64,000 nt of DNA from Oxynema aestuarii AP17. Lineage in GTDB: Bacteria > Cyanobacteriota > Cyanobacteriia > Cyanobacteriales > Laspinemataceae. Numbering within the stretch: position 1 is the first letter of the stretch; each line of letters opens with the position of its first letter. Under the pieces are notes generated by a model. That model ran no database searches, was not told where the DNA came from, and saw only the letters and a list, made by a program, of their open reading frames with translations. The position numbers and the translations under genes were made by a program. The stretch is taken from positions 5,621,299 through 5,685,298 of the forward strand of contig NZ_CP051167.1 in the NCBI RefSeq assembly GCF_012295525.1, written 5' to 3'. Positions 25,875 to 53,635 of this stretch are shown here, piece after piece.

Positions 25875-26104
25875 TACAGCACTCGGGCATCTTAGTGAGG
25901 TACAGTGCCGATCCCCTTCTATCCCCCCAACCCCCCTTTGAAAGGGGGGCGAAGGAGGGTTAGGGGGGAACGAGGAAAGTAGGGGTTTGGTAATCCAACC
26001 CCTACCTGGCGAGGGGGATTTAGGCGGATCTAGAGGAAAGTCCCCCTTTTTAAGGGGGATTTAGGGGGATCTAAATGTTTTGCATAGCAGAGGAAAATGC
26101 TATA
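25875..26104. repeat. Copy A of a dispersed MITE-like repeat. Its terminus is TACAGCACTCGGG…, its interior has G/C palindromes, and its conserved 3' module is GTCCCCCTTTTTAAGGGGGATTTAGGGGGATCTAAATGTTTTGCATAGCAGAGGAAAATGCT.
   Basis: Three copies occur in the window (also at 42881 and 53435). The ends form short inverted repeats (CTACAGCA…TGCTGTAG). Confidence 0.65.
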
Positions 26105-26181
26105 TGGAAGTTTGGGGTGACTTTAATCCCCTCAGTTCCCCTTGAGAAGGGGGGCTTTTGAAAAGGGAATTTTGGGAAATT

Positions 26182-27522
26182 TCATGTGAGTTCGGGGGCG
26201 TCTTCTAAGAGGGGATTGAGATCGAACCAGCGACCGAATTCGTTGGTGCGATATTCAAAAACGAATAAACTCCTTAAAAGGATTTGATATTGATCTTCTC
26301 CGGTCACTTTTTTAGTTTGCGAGACTTTTTTAAGTAACTCCCATTCCAGTTCGGTAATTGCCAGCATCAGGTCATCTCGTTCTTGACGAATGGCAATTTC
26401 GAGGCGATCGCGGGTAATCGGTAATTGCTTGCTTTGTTGCAAACAGCGAAATAACAAACTGAGTAAATTTCGCACGTGACCGCCACTGATACCACAGAGG
26501 CGATCGAGGGTTTCGGGACGGTCAACAACCTCGGTGATGCGATCGCGCCGTTGTTTTGGCGACAGTTTGGGAAAAGCGCGGGCTAAAATCGCCTGTCTTA
26601 ATAATTCTAACCCTTTTTCACAGTTTTGACCGTCGGCTAACTTCACCGGAACCATCGGTAAGACCATCGGCGCATTACCTCCCCCTAAACGCTTTTTTAA
26701 TGCTTCCCGTTCGTTAGAAAACATCAACACGAGGGGGATGGTATAAACCACATGACATTTTAATTCCTTTAACTGTTCTCCTCGGGTAATAAATAAATAT
26801 TCGACCGCACTTTTATCATCCGATCTTTTACGATTGTCTACGCGATCGAGACTGTCGATAATAATGACCAGTCCTTCTTTTCCTTGCTTCTTTAATTGAA
26901 GGTTAGCAGGTTGGATTAAATCGCCGTTAATCGCCTGTAGTAAGGTATTTGTTTTCGGTTCTAAATAGTCGCGCAGGCGATCGCGCATTTGTGGACTATC
27001 TTTAGTTTTGGCAACAATCTTACCCAGGTTAACTTTAGCACCAAGAAAAGAAATTTCTGGATTAAACTCCATTTCTGCTTTCAGTTCGATGGGAGTGAGC
27101 AGAAACTGCACGCATTGTTCTAAAAGCTCATTAAAATAACCGGGTTTGAGGTTGAGGCTTTGCTGTTCTAAAGTATCGAGAACTTTTTGGGCGATCGCCA
27201 ATAAAACATCGGTGACGTCCACATCTCCCATTTCCAAATCGTCGCGGGTGTCGATATAAACGACAACAAAACCCTGTTTTTCTAGCTCGAATTTTAAGCG
27301 CAATAACTCGGTCGATTTACCACAACCAATATGTCCGGTGAAAAGCTGACAAGTCGGATCTGGAGAAAGGAGGGAGATCGTTTCTCCGAGTTGTTCGACA
27401 ATATCCGTACCTCTGACGGAAGTAAAATCAATGTAATAATCTTTATCCTCAGGTCTCTCAATCCAGATGGTTTTGCTGGGATTGCAGGCGCGAAAAAAGC
27501 GTTTAAACTCATTTCTATCCAT
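26182..27522 (-). CDS. ORC/Cdc6-like or AAA_16-type P-loop ATPase with Walker A TGHIGCGKSTELL and Walker B LVIIIDSLDR. The C-terminal half looks like a lid/winged-helix region.
   Basis: Motifs were read from the translation. The start is ATG at 27522 (MDRNEF…); the longer ORF-track start is less likely. Confidence 0.55.
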   Translation of the reverse strand: MDRNEFKRFFRACNPSKTIWIERPEDKDYYIDFTSVRGTDIVEQLGETISLLSPDPTCQLFTGHIGCGKSTELLRLKFELEKQGFVVVYIDTRDDLEMGDVDVTDVLLAIAQKVLDTLEQQSLNLKPGYFNELLEQCVQFLLTPIELKAEMEFNPEISFLGAKVNLGKIVAKTKDSPQMRDRLRDYLEPKTNTLLQAINGDLIQPANLQLKKQGKEGLVIIIDSLDRVDNRKRSDDKSAVEYLFITRGEQLKELKCHVVYTIPLVLMFSNEREALKKRLGGGNAPMVLPMVPVKLADGQNCEKGLELLRQAILARAFPKLSPKQRRDRITEVVDRPETLDRLCGISGGHVRNLLSLLFRCLQQSKQLPITRDRLEIAIRQERDDLMLAITELEWELLKKVSQTKKVTGEDQYQILLRSLFVFEYRTNEFGRWFDLNPLLEDAPELT

Positions 27523-27693
27523 GATGTGATTTCCATCATTGGGGATGGGCGATCGGATGGCGTCGGGATAGCACCTTTTCGAGGTTTGGCTCGATCGTAT
27601 TCTACTTTTGAGGAATTGTCCCGGGAAATGTAACATTTATTTGCCTCCGGGGGCGCAACCAGAACACCCCCGGTACAAACATCGGTACAAACA

Positions 27694-28404
27694 TTAAGAA
27701 ATCTGCGGTTTCCAGGCTTCTAAAGTCCACGCCATTTCCCAAAACATCCACTCGTAGCGACTGCTAATCGTGAAAATTTCATCGAGACGGCGGAACGTTT
27801 TCTCATCCTCGGGGGTGATGCGATTGAGGGTGGTCCGCAACCACGTTCCGACTTCTTCAAAGCTGGGATCGGCGTAGGTTTGAATCCAATTGCGATAGGG
27901 ATGGTCGGCGGGCGGGTCGCCGAGGCTCACAAAGTGCTTGCCGATTTCGGCATAAATCCAGGCGCAGGGGAGAGTGGCGGTGATAATTTCGGGTAAAGTA
28001 CCGTTGTTAACGACGCTCAATAGATGTCTTGTATAAGCGTAATTGGTCGGCGCGAGGGGGGTTGCCTCCATTTGTGCGATCGTCAAACCGAACTCGCGGG
28101 CGAAGGTTTCGTGCAGTTCCCGTTCGACGCGGATGGTGTCGAGGGCGAGTTGGCACATTTTTTCCATGACGGCGGGTTCGTCGCTGGCGATCGCCCCGGC
28201 GGCGAAAATTTTAGTGAGTTGTTCGAGAAACCGGGCATCTTGAAGGATGTAAAACTCGAAGTTTTCCCGAGGTAAGCTGCCATTCCCCAGGGCTTCAACA
28301 AAGGGATGGTCGAACTGTCGTTCCCAGATCGATCGGCTGTTTTGGAAGAGGCGATCGCACAACGTCCCGGGTTCGGCGCCGACGCGCTTGGAAAGGTCTA
28401 GCAT
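27694..28404 (-). CDS. tenA: TenA/THI-4 family thiaminase II / aminopyrimidine salvage protein.
   Basis: …FVEALGNGSLPRENFEFYILQDARFLEQL… matches the TenA fold signature. Starting at the internal ATG (MLDLSKR) gives an 18-nt gap to the upstream gene. Confidence 0.6.
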   Translation of the reverse strand: MLDLSKRVGAEPGTLCDRLFQNSRSIWERQFDHPFVEALGNGSLPRENFEFYILQDARFLEQLTKIFAAGAIASDEPAVMEKMCQLALDTIRVERELHETFAREFGLTIAQMEATPLAPTNYAYTRHLLSVVNNGTLPEIITATLPCAWIYAEIGKHFVSLGDPPADHPYRNWIQTYADPSFEEVGTWLRTTLNRITPEDEKTFRRLDEIFTISSRYEWMFWEMAWTLEAWKPQIS

Positions 28405-28421
28405 AGTTGCAACTGAAGGAT

Positions 28422-29225
28422 TTAGGGTGAATGGGTCGCGATCGATCTTACACAAAGAACGGTTTCGAGGCGATCGCCCGCGATCTGTACCCGAATCGCC
28501 CGCGCCTGAATCCCCCGATCTGCGGCGCGATCGAGGTTGAAGCGACGGGCGACGGCGTTTAACCCGCGCACGAATTGCCCGGGGGCGGGGCGATCGTTGA
28601 CTAAGACTTGCGGTTCACTCAATTCTAATTGCCGTCCGTCGATCCATCTAAACCCAGTTTTAATCGTCAGTTTGAGGCGATCGCTGTAGCCTTTTTCGGC
28701 GAGTTGGGTCTCGAAAACAATGCGATTATTTTCTAATAGCTCAATTTGCGGATCGACGAGGGTATAACGGCTGGCATTTTGCCGCAGTAAGGGGGAATCA
28801 AAAATTTCAGTGGCTACAGTTTGCAGGGTATTCAAAAACTCGGGCGATCGCAAAGCCCGATTGAGGTCAGTTTCGGTTAACACTAAATGAATGGCGGCGA
28901 TCGCGGGGCGTTCCAAACTCTCCACGGCGCGATCGCGCGATCCCCGGCGCAATTTCTCTAAATCGACGGCGATCGGATCGGTTTCGATGTCTAAGGTATC
29001 GATTCTTAAATCTGGCAAAACGTACAATCCCCGACCCGCCAAACGAAACCGATCGATCTTGCCTCGAATCACTTGATAGTTCGGGGTATTATCGATTCTT
29101 ACTTCTAAGACTTCCACCCCGTGGAGGCGATCGCGCAATTCGCGTTCGATGACGGTATCGGAAACTGTATTAACGGGGGAAATAACTGTTAATAAGCTTG
29201 AAAACAGGATCGTTAGAAATTCCAC
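28422..29225 (-). CDS. DUF2993-family (lipid-binding-like) cyanobacterial protein.
   Basis: The assignment rests on length, composition and weak family recall only. Confidence 0.35.
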   Translation of the reverse strand: MEFLTILFSSLLTVISPVNTVSDTVIERELRDRLHGVEVLEVRIDNTPNYQVIRGKIDRFRLAGRGLYVLPDLRIDTLDIETDPIAVDLEKLRRGSRDRAVESLERPAIAAIHLVLTETDLNRALRSPEFLNTLQTVATEIFDSPLLRQNASRYTLVDPQIELLENNRIVFETQLAEKGYSDRLKLTIKTGFRWIDGRQLELSEPQVLVNDRPAPGQFVRGLNAVARRFNLDRAADRGIQARAIRVQIAGDRLETVLCVRSIATHSP

Positions 29226-29346
29226 GGCTTTTTATGACACTACTAATAGTAACCCGGCAATGCCGTGTCCCCACGTTCATTGCCGGGAAACTAGGAATGA
29301 CTGACCAAGTGGTTCGCCAAATTCAGAAACGCGATCGCTTCACCAG

Positions 29347-31017
29347 TTACGAACTGGCACCGACTAAGGATTTTTTAGCGGTGTCAATTGGAGCCGACAA
29401 AGCCGCTTCTAAGTCCCCACAACCGAGACGTTCTTCTAAAATATTCATCACTTCTCGCCCGAAATCGTTGGGATTGCGCCGCCATGCTTCGAGGCAAACT
29501 TCACCGAAGAAAGAGCCGAGGGGTTCGGGATTCCACAGCAATTTGCGGGCGGTCCACGGCATCAAACTCATGGGATTGTAACCGGGTTTGAGAATGTCGT
29601 TATCGAAGGCGTATTCTTCGAGATGGGTGTGCGGTTGTAAGCCGATGAAAAAGATGGCGGGTTCGACTTTATCGGCGCCGAAAATGCGTTCGAGTTCGCG
29701 ATGATAGGCGATCGTTTGGCGGATTGTCTCGAAAGTTTCGTCGATGACGTTGAAGGAATAATTAACGGAAACGAGGTCGTTAAATCCGGCAGCTTTGAGG
29801 TCGCGGCAGTTTTCTAAAACCGTTCGCAGGTTGTAACCCATTCGCATTTTGCGAACGAGTTCTTGAGACCCACTGGTAATGCCGATTTCAAAGTAATTCA
29901 TCCCGGTTTTAACCATAAGATCGCACAGTTCGGGAGTGAGGTTATCGGCGCGAATGTAGGCGGCCCAGTGAATATCTTTCATCCCGGAAGCGAGGATTTT
30001 TTGCAGTAGCTCGATCGCGTCGTCGATGAATTTACGGGCGGGGATAAATTGGGCGTCGGTAAACCAGAAGTTGCGAATGCCGCGATCGTAAAGTTGCCGC
30101 ATTTCGGCGACGACTTCATCGGCGGGATTGATGCGAACTTGCTTACCTTCGATGACGGTATAAATGCAGTAGCAGCAGTTATGGGGACAGCCGCGTTTGG
30201 TTTGGACGCCGATGTAAAAGTCGCTTTCTTGCAGGTAATAGTTGAAGGCGGGCCAGATGGTTTCGATGTAGTCGTAGTTGCAGGCAGTTTTCTCGAAGTC
30301 GGTCGGTTTTTCGTGGATCATGCGATCGCGCGGTTCGGTTTGACCGACGATATAACAGCGTTCGTCGTCGAGGGAATCGCCGCGCAGCAGTTTTTCGAGG
30401 AGGGCTTCTCCTTCGCCGACGGAGACGATCGTTCCGTCGGGTAAGCTTTTGCCGAGTTGTTCGTAGAAAACGCTGACGGCGCCGCCGCCGACGACGGCGC
30501 GGGCGTCGGGATTGTAGGTTTTCGCCCGTTTTAAGCCGCGTTTAATTAAGCCGAGGTTGCGCCACAGTTCCGTATAGTAAGCGGTGGTAATTCGTAAGCC
30601 GCCCAGGGCGCCCCGAAGTTTGACGAGGGGATTGCGGGCGTAATAGAACTCGAAGGCGTATTGCAAGGGGTTGCCGCCGCGTCCGCCAACGGGGGCGTAA
30701 ATTTGAATGTCGCGCCAGGAGAAGACGAGTAAGCTCGGTTTGAACTCGTCGATCGCCCGATCGAGGGCGCTGGCAAAGTCGAGGGGTGGGATCGTTCCCA
30801 GGTCGAAGATCTGTTGTTCGACGTCGGGAAAGAGTTTGTGAATGCGATCGGCGAGGTAGACGACCCCGATGGGGAAGATCGGATTGCACGGGAGGCGGAC
30901 GTAAAGGATGCGATCGGTATTCATTTGGGTTTGAGAGGTTAGGGTGTTCGGTGCGTTAAGTTTTCTGAAAAGTTTTTCATATAACTTCACGATATCATTC
31001 CTGTCTGGGATCTGCAT
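29347..31017 (-). CDS. B12-binding-domain radical SAM enzyme.
   Basis: It has an N-terminal B12-binding region (…FPIGVVYLADRI…) and a CxxxCxxC motif (RGCPHNCCYC). Confidence 0.65.
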   Translation of the reverse strand: MQIPDRNDIVKLYEKLFRKLNAPNTLTSQTQMNTDRILYVRLPCNPIFPIGVVYLADRIHKLFPDVEQQIFDLGTIPPLDFASALDRAIDEFKPSLLVFSWRDIQIYAPVGGRGGNPLQYAFEFYYARNPLVKLRGALGGLRITTAYYTELWRNLGLIKRGLKRAKTYNPDARAVVGGGAVSVFYEQLGKSLPDGTIVSVGEGEALLEKLLRGDSLDDERCYIVGQTEPRDRMIHEKPTDFEKTACNYDYIETIWPAFNYYLQESDFYIGVQTKRGCPHNCCYCIYTVIEGKQVRINPADEVVAEMRQLYDRGIRNFWFTDAQFIPARKFIDDAIELLQKILASGMKDIHWAAYIRADNLTPELCDLMVKTGMNYFEIGITSGSQELVRKMRMGYNLRTVLENCRDLKAAGFNDLVSVNYSFNVIDETFETIRQTIAYHRELERIFGADKVEPAIFFIGLQPHTHLEEYAFDNDILKPGYNPMSLMPWTARKLLWNPEPLGSFFGEVCLEAWRRNPNDFGREVMNILEERLGCGDLEAALSAPIDTAKKSLVGASS

Positions 31018-31393
31018 CGGTGGTGCGCGGCGATTGCGATCGGGATCTGCTTTTTAACGGCGAGGTTGAGGGAACTTGGCCAAAAGTTGTGTTATTCATG
31101 CACGAATTAACCGAGGGCTTCGATCGCCCCTCCCAGCTCGATAGGGCGATCGGTTAATTGCATTGATTGAGGTGGAAACCACGGCAGTTAGAACCGCGAT
31201 CGTGGGGCGATCGCGGCGGGCGCCGAATAACGATTCTGGCTGGAGCGGGTCGGGTTTTTAAAAAAATCTTAAATTATTCATCAACTAATTTTTAAGTCGA
31301 ACCGTTGAAGAGATTTATTTCAGTTGGTAGTCGCCTTTACAGCCAGCCGGGATCGGGGAGTGTTAGGGTAAAAAATGTAATAAATCGTTTTAG

Positions 31394-31807
31394 GTGCAAA
31401 ACTCCTTAATCGTCATGGCACAAATTCTCGATCCCCTCCCGTCTGACCGTTCCGGTCGTATTCTGTGCTGCTACGTGAATGCAACGAGCAAAATCCAAAT
31501 TGCTCGTATCAGCAATATCCCAAATTGGTATTTTGAGCGAGTTGTGTTCCCCGGACAACGGTTAGTTTTTGAAGCCTTTTCAGAAGCCCTTTTAGAAATT
31601 CATACGGGCATGATGGCGAGTGCGATTTTATCGGATAAAATCCCTTGCACGCGCTTGCGAATTGCAGATAACGACTCGTCGGGATCGGAGGACTCTGGCG
31701 ACCCGATCGAGGAACCAACGCGCCCACAACCCAGACGGGAGAGCTATGACAAACGTCCGGCGATTACCGATCCACTCGCGGTAGCCGCTTTAACGACGAT
31801 TGCATAA
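31394..31807 (+). CDS. DUF1830-family cyanobacterial protein.
   Basis: RILCCYVNATSKIQIARISNIPNWYFERVVFPGQRL is the conserved DUF1830 core. Confidence 0.5.
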   Translation: MQNSLIVMAQILDPLPSDRSGRILCCYVNATSKIQIARISNIPNWYFERVVFPGQRLVFEAFSEALLEIHTGMMASAILSDKIPCTRLRIADNDSSGSEDSGDPIEEPTRPQPRRESYDKRPAITDPLAVAALTTIA

Positions 31808-31941
31808 AATAAAACTTTTCTAATGTTTTCATAAGAGGTGGCGGTCCGGCAGCGATCGCCACCTCCTATTATGATGGAGATCGTGGAAAGGGTGCGGGTC
31901 GTACCCGATTGTTGGGATCGAAGCCATCTAAGTCATAAGTT

Positions 31942-32376
31942 GTGGATTTACCGTCATTTCTTTGGTTGTGGAAAATTGCCGCGTGGTCGATGGGTTTGAC
32001 GATCGCCGCTTACGTGGTTTTAGCGACGACGGGATGGTTCGTTTTTAGAGCGAGAAAAGCTCGCCGCCGCCGCGTTTTACTCAAATCGATCCATCAAACC
32101 GTGGGCGTGGCGATCGTCGGTTTAGTATTACTGTTATTGGCGATCGGGATAGTCGGAACCCTCGGTCACTACGGTTCTTTGGGTCATTCTGTCCATCTGG
32201 TTGCCGGGTTGAGTACGGTAGTCCTCGTCTTACTCTCGGCGTGGAGTTCTACTCAAATCGCCCCCCGGCGTCCGTGGGCCCGAACCGTCCATGTCAGCAC
32301 AAATGTTACGCTGTTTTTCGTGCTGGCGTGGGTCTCGTGGACCGGGTGGTCCGTGGTTCAGAAATACCTGCCGTGA
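31942..32376 (+). CDS. Small integral membrane protein (3-4 TM helices).
   Basis: Hydrophobic segments are present. Confidence 0.45.
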   Translation: MDLPSFLWLWKIAAWSMGLTIAAYVVLATTGWFVFRARKARRRRVLLKSIHQTVGVAIVGLVLLLLAIGIVGTLGHYGSLGHSVHLVAGLSTVVLVLLSAWSSTQIAPRRPWARTVHVSTNVTLFFVLAWVSWTGWSVVQKYLP

Positions 32377-32424
32377 ATTTTGCGATTCTCATATAACATA
32401 ATCAGGGTGTTTTCTTTGTAAAGT

Positions 32425-33015
32425 TTGGTTAACCCAGTGATGCAACGAGATCGCCTTCAAGGGGACTTGACCTTTCCCCGCACGTTTCGGATTTCTCCTT
32501 TAATTCGCCTGACTCTCGGCAGTCTCTATTTGGCGTTAACGTTGCCCTTGCCGTTTTTGGCGCGAGCGACCGAGGCGCCCGTCCCGGCGAGTGGCTTGGG
32601 GTTGGGGATCGCCATGGGCGCGATCGCCCTCTACGCCGCCTTCAGCGATCGCGTGACAGTCACCGAAGAGGCGATCGAAGTGAGCTATCCGGCGTGGGTG
32701 CCGCGTCTGTTCCGTAAAGGTTGGCGCCTGCGTTGGGACGAGGTCGCCGATCTCAAAGCGCGCACGACAGGTCAGGGCGGCTTGCTCTACTATTTTCTGA
32801 GCCAATCGGGACAGGGTTACTTACTGCCGATGCGGGTGGCGGGATTTGCCCAGTTGGCGCGCGCGGTGGAGGCGAAAACCGGGATCGATACGGCAGACGT
32901 GAAGCCGTTGTCGCAACCGTGGATGTATTTGATCTTGCTGGGACTGACGGTGTTGCTGCTACTCGTCGATGGTTGGACGATCGCCACCGCGATCGCATCG
33001 GAGCCTATCCTATAA
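32425..33015 (+). CDS. Integral membrane protein (hypothetical).
   Basis: Hydrophobic segments are present, and it shares strand and orientation with the downstream ABC ATPase. Confidence 0.45.
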   Translation: MVNPVMQRDRLQGDLTFPRTFRISPLIRLTLGSLYLALTLPLPFLARATEAPVPASGLGLGIAMGAIALYAAFSDRVTVTEEAIEVSYPAWVPRLFRKGWRLRWDEVADLKARTTGQGGLLYYFLSQSGQGYLLPMRVAGFAQLARAVEAKTGIDTADVKPLSQPWMYLILLGLTVLLLLVDGWTIATAIASEPIL

Positions 33016-33047
33016 TTTACGTATATGAAAGTTGAGAACTATCTCCC

Positions 33048-33818: not shown

Positions 33819-33844
33819 CGATCGACGCTGGGGATCGCATCGGG

Positions 33845-35497: not shown

Positions 35498-35749
35498 ATG
35501 CTTCAGGATGCCACGACAATCCGCCACTACCAGAAGTTAACCGATTCTCTCGTCGATTTGTGGAATCGAGGGTATCGCTTTGACGATCTGAGACTCTATG
35601 TGGATGGATATATTACTGCATTGCGCCAAACGAACACGATCGAGCCGTATCTCGTTCACAGATTGGAAGAAGAACTCGCTCGTTTCATCTACGATCCGTC
35701 CAACTTCGAGGCGGTTCCCCAGCCGCAACCGGAAACGGGTTACTATTGA
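35498..35749 (+). CDS. Small conserved hypothetical protein.
   Basis: There is an ORF with an SD GAGGA 7 nt upstream of the ATG. Confidence 0.35.
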   Translation: MLQDATTIRHYQKLTDSLVDLWNRGYRFDDLRLYVDGYITALRQTNTIEPYLVHRLEEELARFIYDPSNFEAVPQPQPETGYY

Positions 35750-36312: not shown

Positions 36313-36402
36313 GATCGTGATTAAAATTGCGCTGTCGTCTGAAAAAGCGGTCGGTGGATCTGCGAAAATCCCACGCCAGTTTTAGTGTATCGTTCCCCGA
36401 GT

Positions 36403-42880: not shown

Positions 42881-43015
42881 TACAGCACTCGGGCGTCTGA
42901 TGAGGGGGATTGCGGGGGGAACGAGCAAAGTCCCCCTTTTTAAGGGGGATTTAGGGGGATTTAGGAGGATTTAGGGGGATCTAAATGTCTTGCATAGCAG
43001 AGGAAAATGCTGTAG
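42881..43015. repeat. Copy B of the dispersed MITE-like repeat (135 bp). It begins TACAGCACTCGGG and ends …AAAATGCTGTAG.
   Basis: It shares the 5' and 3' modules with copies A and C. Confidence 0.65.
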
Positions 43016-43683: not shown

Positions 43684-43939
43684 GATCGAGTTGAGGTTAA
43701 AAGACAGGTCGAATTCAGAGATCGCCCACTGTTCTTATTGTGGGAATCATGCAGATATAATACCATTTTTGAAAAATAATGAGAGACCGAGGGGAGGGAC
43801 ACGGCACTGCCGTGTCCCTACAGGCGATCCATCTCGATCGAGTTTTTAGAAAATTGGTATAAAATAGCAGCAAAGCCTCAATCTTTCACGGTCTCTCAAT
43901 CCCGATATTGTTGCCCTTTATTGTCTATAGCCTCTTCCG

Positions 43940-46552
43940 TTACAACCAATTCCCTACCAAAACATACGGCCCCCAATAAATCGGGTGTTGATATTCGGGA
44001 ATCTTCAATAAATTAATTTGAGCTTGTCGTAACGCTTCGGCTTTGGTCAGGGTAGAACGGTTCAGTTGGCGGTAAAATTCGACCATTAAAGGAGCGGTAG
44101 CGGCATCGTCGATATACCATAAAGTAGCGAGGGTACTGCGCGCCCCGGCTTTAATGGCAATTCCTGCCAAACCGAGGGCGGCGCGACTGTCGCCACTGGC
44201 GGTTTCACAAGCGCTGAGAACGAGTAATTCGATCGCCTCGTCGCTGCTGCTAGTGCGTTCGCGAACCCGCAATAAGTTATCGAATTCGTTGACATTAATG
44301 CGCTCGTCCCAAGCAAGAATAAATGTATCTTCGGCTTGAGAACTAAATTGACCGTGAGTGGCAATATGGACGATTTCAAAAGGAGTTTTGAGGAGACTTT
44401 CTCGCAGTTGAGACCGGGTAAAGTTTTCGTTGAGTAAGAGAAGTCCGGGTAGGGTTTGATGGATTTCCCGGATTTCGGTTTTGACGTAAGGAAGGGCGGA
44501 AAACCCCGATCGCGCTTCGCTGATTCCGGCGGTGAGGGCTTTTAAGTTCGACTGTTTTAAAGGATTGGGTTTGAGAATTTGCAAGCCGGGAGTGAGGGCG
44601 ATCGCGTAATTTTCGATCAGGAACTGTTCGCCGTCGTAGAGGGTTGACATGGGAATGTTGCGAAACAAGCCGTCGGGGACGAATACGAGGGTTTGAACGT
44701 CGGCGGCGGCGAGCTCGGCGGCGATCGGTTCGATCAGCCATTGATACACTTGATTGCCGTATTGTAAGTAATTAAAAGAGCTACGTTTGACTAAACTTTG
44801 ACGCAGTCGGATCAGGGTTTGTTCGACTTCAGATTTAGCAACGGCGTGGCTGAAGTGACGCAAAGGTTGCCCGGGAAGGGAGACAATCGTATGCAGGCGG
44901 TTTTCTAAAATCAGGGGATAAAAAATACTGGCGTGGGGGTCTACGCGATCGATTTCCACGGGTTGGGTGTCGAGACAAGCATCGCGAAAGAAGTTGTCGA
45001 GTTCGGCAAGTTGGAGGGCTTCGACGACTTTGAGGGCCTGACGCAGACGATCTTGAGTGGGTTGACGATCGCCCTCACCTTGTAGCAAAATGCCGAGGAG
45101 TTCGCGGTAAACGGGTTCGACGCGATCGCGGAAGGAAAACTGCACTTCGCGATTGACGGTGACCAAATCGTAACGAATGGCTTGCAGGGATTTCACCGCT
45201 TCGCTGTAGGCGACGATCGCCCGTTCCCGGTCGTCATGGGCGATCGCGAGGCGTCCGAGTTGCCACTGCCAGCGATAGGCGATATCGGCGGCATCGATTT
45301 GCTGTGCTAAGAGCAATGCGCGCTCGGTGAGCTGCCTCGCGTCGGCAATTTGACCATTTTGCTCGTAAAGATGGCCGAGGCTGCCTAAAGCGTGGGAGAG
45401 GGCGCGTTTGTCTTGCAGGTGTTCGGCGGTCCGCACGGCGTCGGCGAACAGGCGGGCGATCGCTTCTTGGGGTAGGGGGGTTCGCGTAGGATCTCCAATG
45501 GAGAATCGCCGATCGAACTGTGCCAATTCGCTCAAACTTTGGGCGAAATTAATCTGGGCGTACACTTGAGATCGTCCGGGGTGCAGGCGATCGAGCTGTG
45601 CGGGAAGGCGATCGATCGTTTCGGTCACGATCGCTTGTGCTTGCGCGTCGCCCCCTTCTAACAGGCGAATGGCGATCGCGAGGGCATTAAGATCGGCTTC
45701 GACGGCGACGCGATCGCTGGTGGCGGCGGCGTCTCGGTAAGCCTGCAACGCCGTGGTCAGGTCGTCGTCGGCGCGGGCGGTATTGCCCAAATCGAGCAGG
45801 ATTTGGCCGATGAGATCGCGGCGTTGCTCGCCGGATAATTGTCGGGCGAGGCTCAAACTACTTTGCAAGACTTGGCGCGATCGCTCCAAATCGCCGACCA
45901 AACGCAAAGCATTGCCCAAAGCGCGCAAACTCTCACTTCTCAGGGCGAGGTCCGGTTCGTTACTGAGCCGATGGTGGAGGGCTTCGAGGCGATCGCGCGA
46001 TCGCCGATAAAAGCCCAATCCCTGCAAGGCTTGAGCCAGGGAGATTTCGACGCGATCCGCAGCGAGACGATCGCCCGCTTCGCGGTAGGCGGCGATCGCC
46101 GCTTCCCAGGTGTCCGCAGCGCGTTCGAGTTGTCCCCGGTCGAACTCCAAATGACCGCGCGCGTTGAGCGCTTGCGCCAGAACCCGCCTTCGCGCTTCCG
46201 GGGGGATTTCACCGGAATTGACCAGGCTCAAACTGCGGGCGATCGCCATTTCGGCGCGCTTCCACTCCCCTAATTCCCGCCAGGTCGTCCCTAAATTACT
46301 CAGGGCGATCGCGACGGGGGTCGGATCGCGACGGTCCGCACGCGATCGCGCCGCCTCTTGCCACACTTCCACCGCTTGCTGAAATTGCCCGCGATCGTAA
46401 AATAGCCGTCCCCGTTCGATCCATCCCGGGTTCGCCGGATCCGACGCCGACCCACGGAGACTCAAAGGCCCCGCGATCGCCACCATACAAAGGAATCCGA
46501 GCATTAAAAAGGATTGGAAATCACGGAAAAATAAATGCCGTTTTCTTGCCAC
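43940..46552 (-). CDS. Secreted TPR-repeat + CHAT (caspase-HetF-associated) domain protein.
   Basis: It has a signal peptide and N-terminal TPRs. The C-terminal CHAT His/Cys dyad contexts are …VHIATHGQF… and …LLVLSACETASG…. Confidence 0.7.
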   Translation of the reverse strand: MARKRHLFFRDFQSFLMLGFLCMVAIAGPLSLRGSASDPANPGWIERGRLFYDRGQFQQAVEVWQEAARSRADRRDPTPVAIALSNLGTTWRELGEWKRAEMAIARSLSLVNSGEIPPEARRRVLAQALNARGHLEFDRGQLERAADTWEAAIAAYREAGDRLAADRVEISLAQALQGLGFYRRSRDRLEALHHRLSNEPDLALRSESLRALGNALRLVGDLERSRQVLQSSLSLARQLSGEQRRDLIGQILLDLGNTARADDDLTTALQAYRDAAATSDRVAVEADLNALAIAIRLLEGGDAQAQAIVTETIDRLPAQLDRLHPGRSQVYAQINFAQSLSELAQFDRRFSIGDPTRTPLPQEAIARLFADAVRTAEHLQDKRALSHALGSLGHLYEQNGQIADARQLTERALLLAQQIDAADIAYRWQWQLGRLAIAHDDRERAIVAYSEAVKSLQAIRYDLVTVNREVQFSFRDRVEPVYRELLGILLQGEGDRQPTQDRLRQALKVVEALQLAELDNFFRDACLDTQPVEIDRVDPHASIFYPLILENRLHTIVSLPGQPLRHFSHAVAKSEVEQTLIRLRQSLVKRSSFNYLQYGNQVYQWLIEPIAAELAAADVQTLVFVPDGLFRNIPMSTLYDGEQFLIENYAIALTPGLQILKPNPLKQSNLKALTAGISEARSGFSALPYVKTEIREIHQTLPGLLLLNENFTRSQLRESLLKTPFEIVHIATHGQFSSQAEDTFILAWDERINVNEFDNLLRVRERTSSSDEAIELLVLSACETASGDSRAALGLAGIAIKAGARSTLATLWYIDDAATAPLMVEFYRQLNRSTLTKAEALRQAQINLLKIPEYQHPIYWGPYVLVGNWL

Positions 46553-48360
46553 GTTCGATCTCTAGAATTGATATCGACAAGTGGAACCCCCCAATCCACA
46601 CGAGCGCGTAATTTATCGCTCAACTGCAGTTGCAATCCCATCCCTAATGACACTAACGTATTGGAATCCGGGTTTTGCTGACCGTCGGAATTCCACGCCG
46701 TACCGACATCGATAAAAGGCGCCAGATGTACCATAAATTCTCGCCCTCGGGTGCGGTAAAGCGGAAGGCGCACTTCTGCGGAGGCAAAGGCGCCGTTATC
46801 GGCGAGCAGGGCATCTTGACGGTAGCCGCGCACGCTTTCAAAACCGCCCAAGCCGAATTGTTCCAGGGGGACGAGGGCTTCCGGACTCAGTTGCACGTCA
46901 CCGCGTAGCAACAGGGTCGCGGCCCCGCGCGGATCCCCCGTTTGTCCGCCGAGTACCCGCAGCCACTGTACCTGTCCGCGCCACGTCAAAAAGCGGCTGT
47001 CCGGTTCGGAACTGTTGACCGTGGCGTCAAACCAACCGACGCCGAGGCTGAACTGCGATCGCGCCGCCAACACTTGGCGAGAACTGCGTTCGGTCCATTC
47101 TTGGAAAAAGCGTAACGCCGAAATCCGCGTTTCGCCGTCGTCGTCGGCCCCGGGAGAGAGGGGAAAATCGACCCCGAGGAGGGAGGTTTGACTCGATCGC
47201 CGTGCGGCGGTCAACCCGAGGGCAAATTCTCGGGTCGGGGTTTCTAAAAACGGTTGGCGCAAGGTGACTTCGCTGGTGCGCGATTTGGCTTCGATATCGA
47301 CGCGATCGAACGGCGGCTCGATAATTTCACTCGACGTGCGACTGTGGGAAAAGTTGAGGGTGCCGTTACGCGAGTTAATCGGGAAGGTGTAGTCGAAATC
47401 CCACTGGTCGCTGCCTTCCGTGCGCGCGTAAGCGGCTCCAAAGGCATCGCCAAACCCGAATAAGTTGCCGTGATTGAGGTTAATTTCTTGCCGGAAGGTG
47501 CCGACACTCGGCGATCGCCCGTTATCGATTTTGAACTCGGCCCCGAAGGCGCGCGCTTCTTCGATCTGCACTTCGAGCAGGTTTTCCCCGGTGCGCGTCC
47601 CGGCGGACAGTTCCGCCGATAAATTTTCGATCAGGGGGTTGAGTTGCAACAGTTGCAACGCTTCGAGGAGTTCTTCGATATTGACGGGTTTTTGACCGGC
47701 CCGTTCCAAACGAGAGCGGATGTAGTTGGGACTGAGACGATTGGTTCCACTCACTTGGATCTCTTCGAGTCCGCCTTCGACCACTTGGATTTTGACGATC
47801 CCGTTTTCTAAGGTTTGGGGCGGAATTAAGGCCCCAGTGGTGATGTAACCCCGCTCGTTGTAATATTCGGTGACTGCGGAACGCGCTTGCAACAGTTCTG
47901 CAAACGATAAGGGGCGATTGATAAAGCTGGAAAGCAGATCTTCTAATTCTTCATCGCTGAAAATCGTGCTACCGAGTACCTCGAAGCCATCGACTTCGAT
48001 GGTCGTCGGAATCTCCCCGGTCGCATCCGGCGCCGCGTCCGGATCGGAGGGGGATACGCTGGGCGGTCGCAACAGTTCTTCCGGCGGCGGTAACAGTGGC
48101 GGTTGTTCCGGTAAGGGTTCGGAGGGGGGTAGGGGGTTGGGAATGTCTGTCGGTACGTTTTGGGCGATCGCCCGCTCCACCGAGGTTACCGATGCGACCA
48201 ACATGATCGGGAGTGAGAAAAGAGAGGAAAGCTTAAATAAAGGATGGCGCCCGTTTTCTAAGTTCAAACCGATCCGGTTTAAGGATCGATCCCCGGTTTC
48301 GGTTGGGCTTTGCCGCCGCCGAACTAGAAAGGTCGCCAAAAACTGTTGTGTTGGAAACAT
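46504..48360 (-). CDS. ShlB/FhaC/HecB-type two-partner-secretion outer-membrane transporter (TpsB) with POTRA domains.
   Basis: It has a signal peptide and a POTRA-like …VDGFEVLGSTIFSDEELEDL…. It ends in the aromatic …NPF typical of a beta-barrel, and overlaps the downstream CHAT gene by 49 nt. Confidence 0.7.
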   Translation of the reverse strand: MFPTQQFLATFLVRRRQSPTETGDRSLNRIGLNLENGRHPLFKLSSLFSLPIMLVASVTSVERAIAQNVPTDIPNPLPPSEPLPEQPPLLPPPEELLRPPSVSPSDPDAAPDATGEIPTTIEVDGFEVLGSTIFSDEELEDLLSSFINRPLSFAELLQARSAVTEYYNERGYITTGALIPPQTLENGIVKIQVVEGGLEEIQVSGTNRLSPNYIRSRLERAGQKPVNIEELLEALQLLQLNPLIENLSAELSAGTRTGENLLEVQIEEARAFGAEFKIDNGRSPSVGTFRQEINLNHGNLFGFGDAFGAAYARTEGSDQWDFDYTFPINSRNGTLNFSHSRTSSEIIEPPFDRVDIEAKSRTSEVTLRQPFLETPTREFALGLTAARRSSQTSLLGVDFPLSPGADDDGETRISALRFFQEWTERSSRQVLAARSQFSLGVGWFDATVNSSEPDSRFLTWRGQVQWLRVLGGQTGDPRGAATLLLRGDVQLSPEALVPLEQFGLGGFESVRGYRQDALLADNGAFASAEVRLPLYRTRGREFMVHLAPFIDVGTAWNSDGQQNPDSNTLVSLGMGLQLQLSDKLRARVDWGVPLVDINSRDRTWQENGIYFSVISNPF

Positions 48361-48850
48361 CTTAATTTAGTACACTCAAGCAAATGAGTTGGATCGGGTT
48401 GGCAAATTTAATTGGTAGATTGGTTCGCTCCAATTTTATGCATCTGCACCCAGCAATTCACTCTATTTTAGGTCTCGATTCCCTGGTTAGAGACAACAAT
48501 TATTGAAAATTAAAATATGAGGTTTCTCAAGCCTCAGCCCGGATCGTTTTTTTCTATTTCATTAAAACTTAACCGGGCGATCGCGCCGAGACCCCTCTAA
48601 ATTTTTCGGCCATTGCCACCCCATTGCGGCCATCCTACCCGACAAAAATAACTTTAACCCTTTCTTCCTTCCTCTGTCACGATCCGGGCGGGCGATCGCG
48701 ATTGATTCCGATTCCCGTTTGTCGATAAATATAAATCTTTTGAGGGATGTTTTATTTATATTTCAGGGTTGATTTGAGAAGATATAGCGATCTAATTGAG
48801 TCGGTGTTCGCAGATAAAAGCGAGACATAGAAAACCCCGACAGGCGATCG

Positions 48851-49552
48851 TTATCTGCCTTCTCCCTCTCGTTCTAACTGCTGCACGAAGGCTCGATGCG
48901 CCGGACTGGCCAATCCCGCTTGCAACGTCGCCATCAGTGCCCCCATCTCTCCCGCCAGGAGTTGGGGAACCGCCAGCCACAAGCCCGGAAAGACCCCACT
49001 GCGAACGATCCCGTCTCCGTCGGGAACTCGGGAAATATACTCTTCTCCTTCCAAGCCAAACCAATCGAATTTTCGATCCATCACTTGCCATACCCAATAT
49101 TCCCGAACCCGATTGCGTCGATACACTCGTTTTTTATCGCGCAAGTCAATCGAAGCCGTACTCGCCGCAATTTCGACAATTAATTCCGGTGCCCCTTCGA
49201 TGTATCCCTCCTCACCGAGGGAACTTTGACCGCCAGAGGGGCGATCGATGAGTAACACCGCATCCGGTTGGGGTTCGTTGTCGAGATCGAGACGCACGCT
49301 CGGATTATCGCCCAAACGCACTCCCGGCGTCGCCATCTTGTAATTCCAAAGCCAACCGATTATGTTGGCATCAGGTTCGGCATGGGCTTCAAATCTCAAA
49401 GGTGAGGCCATGTAAACAATTCCTTCGATCAATTCCGCTTTTTTCACGGAGGGCATTGCTCGGTAACGTCGCTCGAATTCACGACGGGAGAGCAAATCGC
49501 CATTTTCGAGGATCGGCGGAGTTTGAGGATGAGAAGGGGTGAGCGAAGTCAT
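48851..49552 (-). CDS. Uma2-family endonuclease (DUF820).
   Basis: …EYWVWQV…DRKFDWF… is a typical Uma2 core, and the family is abundant in cyanobacteria. Confidence 0.6.
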   Translation of the reverse strand: MTSLTPSHPQTPPILENGDLLSRREFERRYRAMPSVKKAELIEGIVYMASPLRFEAHAEPDANIIGWLWNYKMATPGVRLGDNPSVRLDLDNEPQPDAVLLIDRPSGGQSSLGEEGYIEGAPELIVEIAASTASIDLRDKKRVYRRNRVREYWVWQVMDRKFDWFGLEGEEYISRVPDGDGIVRSGVFPGLWLAVPQLLAGEMGALMATLQAGLASPAHRAFVQQLEREGEGR

Positions 49553-49593
49553 CGGTTGGAGGGGTTCGCTATCGAGATCGGGTTCAATTCAGA

Positions 49594-51012
49594 TTATCTT
49601 AGCCGTTGAAGGGCGGCAAATGCCTCGGAGCGAGCAAAATCGGCGCAATGGCTCACAAAGCGAGCGGGAATTTCCGATCGATCGCCCCAGTGCAAGTGCA
49701 GGTAAGAGGCGTGCAGGGTTTGAGAAGTTCCGTGCCATCCTTCATCGCCGAGGGGTTGGGGGCGATCGTAACGGGATTTTTGGAAGATGGGGGAGTGCGG
49801 TTCGCGGGTGAGGTGCGATCGGTGAAACTCGTGGGCGCAAACGGTTTCGCCCTTTGCCAGGATCGGTGTCGGCTGAAGGGCGATCGCCTTGCGATAACCG
49901 AGAGTCAAGCGAGAACCCATTTGGGCCGTTGTCGGTAAAATTCCGACCATCGGCCAGCTTTGCCCGTCAAAATCGACTAAATGTTCGCACAAATACATCA
50001 AACCGCCACATTCGGCATAGGTCGGCATTCCCGCCGCGATCGCCCCCCGAACTAGATCTCGCAGGCGGTCGTTGGCGGCGAGGGATTCGGCAAAGATTTC
50101 TGGAAAGCCCCCACCGAAGTATAAGCCGTTCGTTCCTTCGGGAAGGCGATCGTCGGCGAGGGGACTCCAGGAGACTAATTCAGCTCCGGCGTCGCGCAGG
50201 CGGTCGAGATTGTCCGGATAGTAGAAACTGAAGGCCCGATCGCGCGCTACGGCGATCGTCACTCGCGCAGACTCGGCGATCTCCGCCAGGGCAGGGCAAT
50301 CGCCCCTAGGGGTTCGGGCCACTTGTAATAAGGGGAAGAGTAAATCCCAGTTAAACGACCGGGCGGCGAGGTGGGCGAGGCGATCGAACAGGGCGTCGAG
50401 ATCGGGCAGTTCGGCAGTCGGAACTAAGCCGAGATGGCGGTCGGGAATGGCGATCGCGTCCTGGCGGCGCAAAATGCCCAAAATCGGCAATCCCAAGGGT
50501 TCTAGGGCATTTTCGAGCAGTTCGCAGTGACGATCGCTCGCCACTCGATTGAGTATGACTCCGGCGATCTTGACGCGCGGGTCAAAATGGCAGTAACCGT
50601 GGGCGATCGCCGCTACGGAACCCGACAGACGGGCGCAATCGACGGTCAACACTACGGGTAAATCGAGCAATCGGGCAATATGGGCCGTACTGGCAAAATC
50701 GCCCTCGGGGCGATCGCCGTCAGGAGCATTGACGCCGTCAAATAAGCCCATCACCCCTTCGACTAGGGCAAATTCGACCGCCGGGACGTGGCGATCGAAG
50801 CAGCGACAGACGTAATCGGGAGACGTCAGTACCGGGTCTAAATTGCGACAGGGACGCCCGGTGACGTACTCGTGAAACATCGGATCGATATAGTCCGGCC
50901 CGACTTTAAACGATTGAACGGAAGATCCTTGGCGTTGTAAATACGCCAGCAGTGACAGGGCGATCGTCGTTTTCCCCGCCCCACTGCGTTCGCCTGCAAT
51001 CACTACAGCCAT
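49594..51012 (-). CDS. cbiA: Cobyrinate a,c-diamide synthase (CobB/CbiA): MinD-like ATPase + glutamine amidotransferase.
   Basis: The N-terminal P-loop MAVVIAGERSGAGKTT and the C-terminal GATase …ECGGLMYL are present. The start is taken at the internal ATG. Confidence 0.75.
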   Translation of the reverse strand: MAVVIAGERSGAGKTTIALSLLAYLQRQGSSVQSFKVGPDYIDPMFHEYVTGRPCRNLDPVLTSPDYVCRCFDRHVPAVEFALVEGVMGLFDGVNAPDGDRPEGDFASTAHIARLLDLPVVLTVDCARLSGSVAAIAHGYCHFDPRVKIAGVILNRVASDRHCELLENALEPLGLPILGILRRQDAIAIPDRHLGLVPTAELPDLDALFDRLAHLAARSFNWDLLFPLLQVARTPRGDCPALAEIAESARVTIAVARDRAFSFYYPDNLDRLRDAGAELVSWSPLADDRLPEGTNGLYFGGGFPEIFAESLAANDRLRDLVRGAIAAGMPTYAECGGLMYLCEHLVDFDGQSWPMVGILPTTAQMGSRLTLGYRKAIALQPTPILAKGETVCAHEFHRSHLTREPHSPIFQKSRYDRPQPLGDEGWHGTSQTLHASYLHLHWGDRSEIPARFVSHCADFARSEAFAALQRLR

Positions 51013-51530
51013 CGATGAAGTTCTCTTGATTTGCACGCGATTCGTCGCGATCGACGATCGCTCCTCTGTTATTCTCCCATTAGCGTCGCCCCCGGCGCCG
51101 GACGAGCCCCCGGCGATCGCGGGACGATTGTTGAAAAGATGCGACGAACCGAGAAGCTCTGGTCTTATCTTCTTCTTTGTTAAATCCCGAACCAACTGTT
51201 TCTAAATCCCCCAAAAACCTCCTACTTTAGCTATGAATTAGCAGTGGTTTAGTAACAAAACAAAGGGCTGCTGGATAGAAATTGAACATTGAACGTCGCG
51301 ATCGAGCGGTCATCTTAGACAATCGGGATATCAATTTTTGCATATCGGAACAAAGAATGACAATTGAAATCGTTCCCGATCTTCCACTATCCCCCCAATT
51401 TTGTTTATGACAATAATCAAGATTAACATCGGTAAAAATGCTCCGGCAGAATGTTTCCTAGCCTGACATTTTCCTTTTCATTGGTTAAACTAAAATAACA
51501 CAATTCCATCTCAACCCTTAACGCTAATCA

Positions 51531-53372
51531 GTGGATATGAAAGCTAACTATACCCTCAGTCAATCCTTAATTGCCGCAGACAGTCCCTCAACCGTAGACT
51601 TACTGATTACCTTTCAAGGATCGGAGTCGGATCGACAGAACTTCTCTCGTCGTCCCCTGAATCTTAGCTTAGTCTTAGATCGTTCGGGATCGATGGCGGG
51701 AGCTCCGCTACGATATGCCATTCAAGCTGCCCAAAATCTTATCGATCGCCTCACCGATGATGATTTTGTTTCGGTGGTAATTTATGATGACATCGCCGAG
51801 GTAATTATTCCCCCACAATTAGTGACTGATAAAGCCGCCATAAAAACCAAAATTGGTAAAATTCGCGCCCGGGGCTGCACCAATTTAAGTGGCGGCTGGT
51901 TATTGGGATGCAGTCAAGTTCAAGCGAACCAAAGTCCGGAACGGATTAATCGCGTCTTACTTTTAACTGATGGATTGGCAAATTATGGGATTCGAGATCC
52001 GAAAGTGCTAACCAAAACAGCCCTAGAAAAAGCTGAGGCGGATATTGTCACCACAACATTAGGGTTTGGTGATTCTTTTAACGAAGATTTACTGATTAAT
52101 ATAGCAAATGCCGCCCGGGGAAATTTCTATTTTATTCAGTCTCCCGATGACGCCTCCCAAGTGTTTGACATTGAGATGGAAAGTTTGGTGTCGATTGTGG
52201 CGCAAAATCTCAAGGTGAAGCTACAACCGGAAGAATTTGTTGAAGTTGGTGAGATTCTCAATAACTATCGTTTTTCCCAAGTGGGGAATACGGTAGAAGT
52301 TCTCTTGGGGGATGTGTATGGCGTCGAACAAAAGCCCTTAGCGATTCCCTTAACCGTGTCGCCGCGATCGCTATCGGGAATGACGACGATTGCTACGGTG
52401 ACGTATGACTATCAAACCATTGTCGAAGGGAGTATTCAAGAGATTAGCGATCGGTTTTCCATTACCTTAACCGTCGGTTCAGAAGCAGAAGCCCAAGACA
52501 TCGAACCCGATCCGCAAGTTTTAGAACAAACCTCTCAGTTAAGAATTGCCAAATTGAAAGATGAAGCTGTTTCTCTTGCGGACAAAGGAAACTTTGAACA
52601 AGCGGTGGTTAAGCTGCGAGAGACAATTGAGGAACTCAAACGCAAGACATTAGATGAATTCTTTGATATTGCGGAAGAAATAGCCCAACTGGACTACTAT
52701 GCCCAATGTTTAGAAAATCGAAAATTCGATCGCGCCATCCGCAAAGAAATGCGCGATCAATCCTATCAAACTAAAACCCGCGATCGCGAAGATTTAAAGT
52801 TACGGGGTACGACAACAGGTGCAGCCAGTGGGTTAGAGGTAACAACGAATCCCGATAGCGGTGTTTTAGTTAAATGCGAACGGGTGGGAGGTAAGCTACG
52901 AGTTCGAGTAATTTCTGAGGGATATAATTCGGATTTAAACGTGCAGTTTCCTCGCAGTATCCGCGAACAAGATGTTACCTATGTCGTGGATGAAATCACC
53001 CTATCTGCGAATGGCACATTTTATCGCGCTTCCGGAACGATTCGCCGCCTCGTTAAACCGGGTGAAGAAAAAGTATCTACCCAAAAAACCGCTCAAAAAG
53101 GGAAAAAACTACAAACCGCTAAAGCCCAAGGAACGGCGACCGATCTGGAAACCACCGATACGGTCGGAGATGGCGTTTTAGTTCAGTGTATTCAGGACGG
53201 TAAAAAACTGCGAGCCAGAGTGGTTTCGGATGGCTATAATCCTGACTACAACATCCGTTTTCCGCGCAATATCCGAGAGGAAGGCATCTTATATGTGGTT
53301 GATGAAGTGAAGGAAAATCCCCAGGGAGGGTCTTATATTGCCTATGGAAAAATCCGCCGATTAGTTCAGTAG
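51531..53372 (+). CDS. von Willebrand factor A (VWA) domain protein. It carries two tandem copies of an unassigned about 90-aa C-terminal domain.
   Basis: The MIDAS motif is DRSGSM. The C-terminal internal duplication is GVLVKCERVGGKLRVRVISEGYNSD… versus GVLVQCIQDGKKLRARVVSDGYNPD…. Confidence 0.65.
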   Translation: MDMKANYTLSQSLIAADSPSTVDLLITFQGSESDRQNFSRRPLNLSLVLDRSGSMAGAPLRYAIQAAQNLIDRLTDDDFVSVVIYDDIAEVIIPPQLVTDKAAIKTKIGKIRARGCTNLSGGWLLGCSQVQANQSPERINRVLLLTDGLANYGIRDPKVLTKTALEKAEADIVTTTLGFGDSFNEDLLINIANAARGNFYFIQSPDDASQVFDIEMESLVSIVAQNLKVKLQPEEFVEVGEILNNYRFSQVGNTVEVLLGDVYGVEQKPLAIPLTVSPRSLSGMTTIATVTYDYQTIVEGSIQEISDRFSITLTVGSEAEAQDIEPDPQVLEQTSQLRIAKLKDEAVSLADKGNFEQAVVKLRETIEELKRKTLDEFFDIAEEIAQLDYYAQCLENRKFDRAIRKEMRDQSYQTKTRDREDLKLRGTTTGAASGLEVTTNPDSGVLVKCERVGGKLRVRVISEGYNSDLNVQFPRSIREQDVTYVVDEITLSANGTFYRASGTIRRLVKPGEEKVSTQKTAQKGKKLQTAKAQGTATDLETTDTVGDGVLVQCIQDGKKLRARVVSDGYNPDYNIRFPRNIREEGILYVVDEVKENPQGGSYIAYGKIRRLVQ

Positions 53373-53434
53373 TGGTCAGCACCCGGTCACTGAGGGGCGG
53401 GATTCTGACAGGTTTTCCTTTTGTTTTGCTTAAT

Positions 53435-53635
53435 TACAGCACTCGGGTGTCTGATGAGCTACAGTGCCGATCCCCCTATCCCCCCTTCGCCCCCTATCCC
53501 CCCTTCGCCCCCCTTTCAAAGGGGGGTTGGGGGGATGGTTGGGGGGATTTCGGGGGCAACGAGCAAAGTCCCCCTTATCTAAGGGGGATTTAGGGGGATC
53601 TAAATGTTTTGCATAGCAGAGGAAAATGCTGTAAG
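53435..53635. repeat. Copy C of the dispersed MITE-like repeat (201 bp).
   Basis: It shares the termini and the 80-bp 3' module with copies A and B. Confidence 0.65.

Follow-up and report, generated by a model that had tools for sequence, protein, structure and literature searches.

A three-copy repeat of Oxynema aestuarii as a probable non-autonomous IS630-type transposable element

[quoted passage not shown] All three lie on the + strand (Table 1; limits there include the TA on each side), and none contains an open reading frame (ORF); at 134-230 nt, against a canonical 139 nt, they are non-coding and shorter than 600 bp. The original prediction, made from the letters of the window, had described a MITE-like repeat in three copies. 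The number is confirmed by exact matches: a 13-mer, TACAGCACTCGGG, occurs without mismatch at 25875, 42881 and 53435 and nowhere else in the window at up to two mismatches, and a 22-mer, TTGCATAGCAGAGGAAAATGCT, is found only at 26080, 42990 and 53609, with no match expected from shuffled sequence. The two terminal segments common to the copies are of mixed composition, and the similarity is thus not limited to G/C runs. The MITE-like character is likewise upheld, by homology of the ends to IS630 terminal inverted repeats (TIRs), by TA flanks, by a related empty site and by presence or absence between relatives.

Other parts of that description need revision. The proposed limits hold for copy 1, whereas the proposed ends of copies 2 and 3 (43015 and 53635) took in flanking bases. 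Inverted repeats do exist at the termini, but rather than being 8 bp long each end carries about 33 nt of diverged TIR. The block common to the three copies is about 45 nt long with one mismatch, not a strictly conserved 80 bp.

Arms, target sites and relatives of the repeat

BLAST of the arms led, via an element of Anabaena cylindrica, to IS630 family transposase genes in Nostoc sp. C057 (p057_H), Oscillatoria nigro-viridis PCC 7112 (pOSC7112.02) and Nostoc edaphicum (pNe_5). The insertion sequences (ISs) that carry them are 1,018-1,021 bp long, encode HTH_Tnp_IS630 and DDE_3 domains and are flanked by TA; their TIRs of about 31 bp read CAGCACTTCCGGrTGTTATGAGGTACArT after the TA, left and right agreeing at 28-30 of 34 positions. 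Against these TIRs, the left arms of our elements agree at 24-28 of 31 positions, scoring 17-20 where shuffles reach at most 9-12. Copy 1 reaches 28 of 31 against the Oscillatoria IS (L045; score 20, shuffle maximum 12), copy 3 reaches 27 of 31 (score 18, shuffle maximum 9) and the canonical left arm of relatives in other genera 24 of 31. For the right arms the match to the IS TIR is weak (19-22 of 31), and that to the right end of a 105-nt MITE of Nostoc sp. PCC 7120 is clear at 22-23 of 32 positions (p<=0.0005; p<=0.002-0.008 when the terminal 7 nt are left out), with the signature TGTATTGCATA...GCTGTA in common. Because the left arms match the IS TIR and the right arms match the PCC 7120 MITE, both arms are assigned to one IS630-type TIR lineage. 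Like the MITE, the ISs of about 1,020 bp have ends that read TA, CAGCAC...ATGAGGTACAGT, TIRs of 31-34 nt and TA flanks. Unlike them, the MITE has no transposase gene and a much more diverged right arm, and its interior is a 73-nt G/C-run palindrome without similarity to the IS. Descent of the right arm from a fragment of the corresponding arm in the Nostoc sp. C052 MITE type was considered and rejected (local alignment p = 0.1-0.9).

The target sites are those of an IS630-type element. TA stands on both sides of all eight copies of the element (three in the window, two in Roseofilum, two in Okeania and one in Dapis), and it also flanks the Anabaena and PCC 7120 MITEs and the three ISs. At six of nine independent insertions the base outside one TA is complementary to that outside the other, so that the site is an NTAN palindrome (ATAT, CTAG or TTAA). 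The outer base pairs of the window copies are A..T, C..G and T..A; the variable first and last bases, which had been counted as part of the element, belong to the NTAN target around the duplicated TA and lie outside it. IS630 duplicates TA within NTAN, and Tenzen and Ohtsubo reportedly found that it targets CTAG.

Mobility is further supported by the presence or absence of the element. In Roseofilum acuticapitatum one element (L009) interrupts one copy of a local repeat, and this locus minus the element and with one TA equals the paralogous repeat over 86 nt with two mismatches, a related empty site. In a close Oxynema relative (JGI 3300040801, about 96% protein identity) copies 1 and 2 stand at orthologous sites with differing interiors, and copy 3 is missing from the orthologous spacer downstream of a VWA-domain gene (L033), where both flanks align. 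Copy 2 is also present in four other assemblies from the species and the relative, and short-read contigs of the same species end inside or beside it, as expected for a multicopy repeat. No clean orthologous empty site was found, the copy-1 and copy-2 sites being filled in every relative reached; in more distant relatives synteny was lost or the sequences diverged directly after the stop codon.

An exact scan for the right-terminal 20-mer, with one genome per species, recovered full-length relatives with the same two ends in R. acuticapitatum (two loci), Okeania sp. SIO2C9 and Dapis sp. BLCC M229. Each is 139 nt long, except one of 133 nt, and the canonical 139-nt forms are 94-98% identical across families (97.8% for Dapis against Roseofilum, genera of two different families). 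Such near-identity across cyanobacterial families fits recent horizontal spread. In Okeania the element forms a tandem pair (L007 7743-8000; L006 1-235) whose spacer is a duplicated 37-nt 3' end of the upstream gene, whereas Dapis has a single element at the orthologous site (L008 651-789); the duplication therefore carried the element together with its flank. The other 20-mer matches were chance matches in unrelated bacteria, a metagenome scan returned chance matches inside coding sequence only, and a scan of viral contigs and BLAST against a phage database gave no match.

The same arms also occur on core-less MITEs of about 105-108 nt in Nostocales: on pCC7120alpha (349.8 kb) of Nostoc sp. 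PCC 7120, on pANACY.04 of Anabaena cylindrica PCC 7122 and in Dolichospermum UHCC 0315A. The Anabaena element, which was reached by BLAST of the arms alone, is 108 nt long; its 16-bp TIRs are perfect (TACAGCACTTCCCGCT), and it is flanked by TA. These MITEs resemble the window elements in both arms, in their TA flanks, in their intergenic position and in their foldback architecture, and differ from them in having an unrelated interior without the G/C-run core. They may be the Nezha family, a published MITE family reportedly described by Zhou et al. in 2008; Nezha is reported at 130-170 bp, against the 105-108 nt or so of the core-less elements. Nezha TIRs are shared with ISNpu3 (PMC3184786). 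MITEs are well documented in cyanobacteria (PMC2779907, PMC3542288, PMC3184786), and the window family therefore adds a member to a known kind; its core and TIR strings were not found in the literature searched.

In the explanation that we favor, an ancestral unit of about 139 nt, composed of a 33-nt left TIR, a palindromic core of about 73 nt and a 33-nt right TIR, would be bound at its arms by a DDE transposase of the IS630 family. This enzyme would come in trans from a cognate IS of some 1,020 bp, whose 31-bp TIRs the arms resemble and which would be expected to have the ends TACAGCAC...GTGCTGTA. The transposase would excise or copy the element and insert it at TA, preferring palindromic NTAN, and repair after insertion would duplicate the TA. 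Inserted copies would then decay, their arms diverging independently, while the G/C-run interior would change fast by replication slippage and unequal exchange (the 10-, 12- and 18-nt duplications, the 62-nt block and the partial deletion of copy 2 described below). Which transposase moves the element, whether it is present in this genome and whether the Oxynema copies can move at present we judge by inference; copy 2 is almost certainly unable to do so.

Several observations weigh against this explanation. The right arm is only about 65% identical to the IS TIR, and the two arms of the MITEs are complementary at just 19-23 of about 34 positions, compared with 28-30 of 34 in the autonomous IS; the lower complementarity would be the look of decaying TIRs. 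A pair search of 277 kb, including about 106 kb of the Oxynema genome, found no IS with TACAGCA...TGCTGTA ends. Where it is seen, the family is low-copy, with one to three copies per genome by the exact 20-mer, a search biased toward the conserved right terminus. The paralogous empty site of Roseofilum reads TC where TA is expected, which is one of its two mismatches. The copy-3 junction is not clean: 9 nt of the relative correspond to the element and a further 42 nt in the window, and a deletion in the relative may account for this difference. Finally, an IS630-family IS that resides in the window was tried as the autonomous partner and rejected: its TIRs score 2-3 against the arms, which is shuffle level, and its transposase is related to that of the arm-cognate IS around the DDE motif only.

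This resident IS is itself present in three 100% identical copies of 1,126 bp (1236-2361, 10488-11613 and 18732-19857, + strand), with a 364-aa transposase (HTH_33 and DDE_3), the TIR TATAGCAGTCCTAAAT and TA flanks, and the identity of the copies suggests recent activity. Giant adhesin-like genes with Ig/cadherin domains (ORFs of 1,775 and 1,192 aa) adjoin or contain them. Directly abutting the second copy, and sharing a TA with it, is a MITE of 105 nt (10385-10489, + strand) that bears the resident IS's TIRs (TATAGCATTCCTAAAT...ATTTAGGATTGCTATA); its interior hairpin, GGGAGCATCTTGCTCCC, also occurs in the repeats that flank the Roseofilum L009 element. Just past the right end of the third copy, a 46-nt unit, CGATCGCTAACCTGCCTTTCGTTGGCAGTTTAGGGATTGAGGCAGG, is present twice in tandem (19905-19996, + strand).

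Plan of the element and its variable interiors

The canonical relatives have arms of 33 nt to the left and right of a core of about 73 nt whose limits are GATC...GATC. The left TIR reads TA followed by CAGCACTT..CGCT.T.ATGAGGTACAGTGC, the right TIR ..TGTATTGCATAGCAGAGGAAAATGCTG followed by TA, and the core has the layout GATC-C6-TAG-C6-loop-G6-spacer-C5-loop-G5-ATTTA-G5-GATC. The two halves of the 139-nt relatives align as inverted repeats (z = 7-15 against shuffles), forming a long imperfect palindrome in which the outer arms by themselves pair at 21-23 of 33 positions, and the 139-nt unit folds as a single long hairpin whichever strand is taken (DNA z = -5.4 and -4.7). What had been taken for one conserved 3' module is in fact composite: the right TIR is joined to the right-hand half of a G/C-run core that is widespread.

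Against this plan, the Oxynema copies are derived versions. Copy 1 has an extra 62-nt block (~25973-26034) between 9-nt direct repeats, GAGGAAAGT; the block is missing from the orthologous copy of the close relative (L039), which measures 180 nt compared with 230 nt. Copy 2 has lost the inner part of its left arm along with the left-hand half of its core, so that it is probably immobile, and its orthologue in the relative has two 10-nt units fewer. Copy 3 contains an 18-nt unit, CCCCCTATCCCCCCTTCG, in 2.3 copies (53472-53512) and a 12-nt unit, GGTTGGGGGGAT, in two (53525-53548). The interiors vary via slippage, as the 10-, 12- and 18-nt duplications and the 62-nt block show, and a suggested role as recombination or slippage substrates stands only in the sense that the interiors change by tandem duplication. 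A 62-mer that all copies were said to share is exact in copy 1 only: copy 2 differs from it by a 20-nt insertion (extra GGGGGATTTA twice) plus a T>C change, and the hairpin loop of copy 3 is not the same (TTATCTAA). The ATTTAG/CTAAAT hairpin reported with it is indeed present in the Oxynema copies, but not in the relatives from other genera.

The G/C-run core and alternative readings of the repeat

When the 139-nt unit was compared with plasmids by BLAST, only its central ~73 nt found matches, in Nostoc, Kovacikia, Leptolyngbya, Pseudanabaena, Synechocystis, Oscillatoria, Allocoleopsis, Anabaena, Aulosira and others. Sequence conservation of the core extends beyond the runs themselves and spans at least five orders of cyanobacteria. 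Nostoc sp. C052 and its relatives have the core between TIRs AGAAGATGTTTGAAAAGT (18 nt, 94% complementary; L017 356-520) and Pseudanabaena galeata has it between TIRs TTTAGAAACCATTTAAGAATT (21 nt, 90%; L020 375-521). These core-bearing MITEs (of Nostoc C052, N. flagelliforme and Kovacikia on the one hand and of P. galeata on the other) share with the window elements the same central ~73-nt core at 76-89% identity, but their TIRs are unrelated to the window arms, and they would presumably use a different transposase for that reason. Because the core sits in other TIR pairs and core-less MITEs carry the same arms, arms and core combine independently.

The core is also found without any arms. Elsewhere in the Oxynema chromosome (L014 428-606) there are bare core units as well as half-units arrayed in tandem with a period of about 65 nt, and the core itself is an inverted doublet of hairpin units of about 31 nt with a short spacer between them. 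Since it is found between three unrelated TIR pairs, as bare or tandem half-units and in conserved form in at least five orders, it is possible, though we hold this tentatively, that the ~73-nt core is an entity of its own: either a very small palindromic module, mobile or hitch-hiking, that enters the centers of unrelated MITEs or is captured there by recombination, in the manner of the hairpin-forming doublets of repetitive extragenic palindromes (REPs) known as REPINs, or a selected cargo. As cargo, it might aid the persistence or transposition of the MITE, for example via hairpin or cruciform extrusion. REPINs and bacterial interspersed mosaic elements of proteobacteria (PMC3116915) resemble the core in being inverted doublets of short G/C hairpins that form mosaics with other modules; the small dispersed repeats of Nostoc, reportedly described by Elhai et al. 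in 2008, belong to the same comparison. The repeat unit of the window, unlike them, has DDE-type TIRs at its ends and a duplicated TA around it.

One core locus differs between two Synechocystis strains. At orthologous plasmid loci (~400-570) the core is intact in PCC 7339 (L022), whereas in PCC 7338 (L021) it is broken by about 94 nt ending ...TTTTCAAACACACTCTTA, which is like the TIR of the Nostoc C052-type MITE. These ~94 nt appear to be a nested insertion or a rearrangement inside the core.

The same features raise the question of whether the whole element, and not the core only, is REP- or REPIN-like and was moved as single-stranded DNA by a Y1 (HUH) transposase of the REP-associated tyrosine transposase (RAYT) type instead of a DDE enzyme. 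The core is a doublet of the REP type, its units are bare and tandem elsewhere in this genome and recur in many cyanobacterial orders, and the genome has IS200/IS605-type genes (TnpB in L013). We nevertheless consider this very unlikely for the element as a whole: the repeat unit in the window includes the 33-nt IS630-type arms bounded by TA duplications, whereas HUH transposition leaves no duplication, and no RAYT/TnpA gene turned up near any copy, although no systematic search was made. For the core alone such an origin may apply.

Very stable G/C hairpins between genes could instead be primarily cis-acting signals (intrinsic terminators, attenuators or mRNA-stabilizing hairpins) that are kept for that role, and a terminator or attenuator function had been among the original suggestions. 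All copies do lie between co-directional genes, the Okeania/Dapis element begins 1 nt after a stop codon, and on the - strand of copy 1, which is the strand transcribed there, a C5-loop-G5 hairpin is followed by CTTTCCTC, a terminator-like arrangement. That call is marginal, however, and confined to one of the three copies: promoter and terminator scans of the three found nothing consistent, copies 2 and 3 had no terminator match, and the overall counts are not above those of shuffles. Orientation relative to the flanking transcription is mixed, with copies 1 and 2 antisense and copy 3 and the Okeania/Dapis copies sense, and the close relative does without copy 3 while having the same flanking genes. 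Compensatory changes were not found either. Between Oxynema and the canonical clade the left arm changes at positions 10, 13-15, 19 and 25 and the right arm at 24, 26 and from 31 onward, and mismatches in the G/C-run stems are uncompensated. As a cis-acting role also leaves the TIR homology and the TA duplication unexplained, we regard it as improbable.

A further suggestion was that the repeats are small-RNA genes, in keeping with their high degree of structure and with the right-hand segment of about 45 nt that is nearly identical in the three copies. That conserved right end coincides with the transposon TIR, and between the two Oxynema lineages its conservation is no more than their general divergence would give (2 of 63 positions, against a few percent in the flanks). 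The promoter scans found no promoter-like site in or next to any copy. No element matched an Rfam family at the gathering threshold, permissive scans giving only sub-threshold miRNA-precursor hairpins on both strands, and here too the arms had no compensatory substitutions. We therefore think a small-RNA gene exceedingly improbable. A hammerhead ribozyme was also tried, on account of CTGATGAG in copies 2 and 3 with GAAAGTC nearby, and was rejected since the motif is not conserved, reading CTTAGTGAG in copy 1 and CTCATGAG/CTCATAAG in relatives, and has no Rfam match. With these alternatives weighed, a decayed IS630-type MITE is the reading that we retain for the three repeats.

Gene context and implications

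All three copies are intergenic, as had been stated. Copy 1 has both of its neighbors on the - strand: a P-loop ATPase gene, whose stop codon faces the copy, and an nSTAND1 NTPase gene, which faces it with its ATG. Copy 2 lies between the stop of an MscS gene (- strand) and the start of a glutaredoxin gene (- strand), and copy 3 between the stop of the VWA-domain gene (+ strand) and a multicopper oxidase gene (+ strand). The MscS product, 99% identical to the protein recorded for O. aestuarii AP17, agrees with an Oxynema origin of the window. The overlap of copy 1 with the GTG start of a primase-helicase gene did not survive comparison with the relative. The GTG is an artefact of ORF extension: it does not share the reading frame of the gene in the relative, where the start called is the ATG that corresponds to window position 25864, 10 nt outside copy 1. 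The gene product is an nSTAND1-type NTPase with a weak helicase-like match. Under the MITE reading, insertion would affect neighboring genes only incidentally, if at all; copy 1 is situated 10 nt upstream of a start codon.

Table 1 Extent and parts of the three copies in the window
Feature	Position	Strand	Description
Copy 1	25875-26104	+	230 nt including TA at each end
Copy 1 left TIR	25875-25909	+	TA followed by CAGCACTCGGGCATCTTAGTGAGGTACAGTGCC; 28 of 31 positions match the IS TIR
Copy 1 expanded G/C-run core	25910-26071	+	includes the 62-nt block
Copy 1 right TIR	26072-26104	+	TAAATGTTTTGCATAGCAGAGGAAAATGCTA followed by TA; terminal G now A
Copy 2	42881-43014	+	134 nt
Copy 2 tandem array	42943-42980	+	10-nt unit AGGGGGATTT, 3.8 copies
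Copy 2 right TIR	42982-43014	+	
Copy 3	53435-53633	+	199 nt
Copy 3 left TIR	53435-53468	+	27 of 31 positions match the IS TIR
Copy 3 internal tandem duplications	53472-53548	+	18-nt and 12-nt units
Copy 3 right TIR	53601-53633	+	

Other features of the neighborhood deserve mention in their own right. The ATPase gene beside copy 1 (26182-27636, - strand) has a longest ORF of 484 aa, while homologues of 432-448 aa cover about 90% of it, and its 5' end is probably over-extended. Downstream of copy 3, a full-length HEARO RNA (of the IscB omega-RNA type; 55471-55693, + strand) scores 121 bits against a gathering threshold of 83. It is an orphan with no IscB ORF after it, the next ORFs encoding a zinc-ribbon protein and a methyltransferase. 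The zinc-ribbon ORF (223 aa) contains an in-frame, Met/Pro-rich tandem repeat with a 9-nt period (56192-56281, + strand).

For annotation, our results mean that the three loci should be recorded as insertions of a MITE rather than as regulatory RNAs, and that the start of the nSTAND NTPase gene should move to the ATG. For the family, the identity of the Roseofilum and Okeania/Dapis elements across different families points to recent horizontal spread, whereas the Oxynema copies illustrate how rapidly the G/C-run interior changes by slippage while the termini persist. Should the core prove to move by itself or to be under selection, cyanobacteria would have in it a counterpart of REP/REPIN modules, and it would exemplify the modular assembly of bacterial MITEs.

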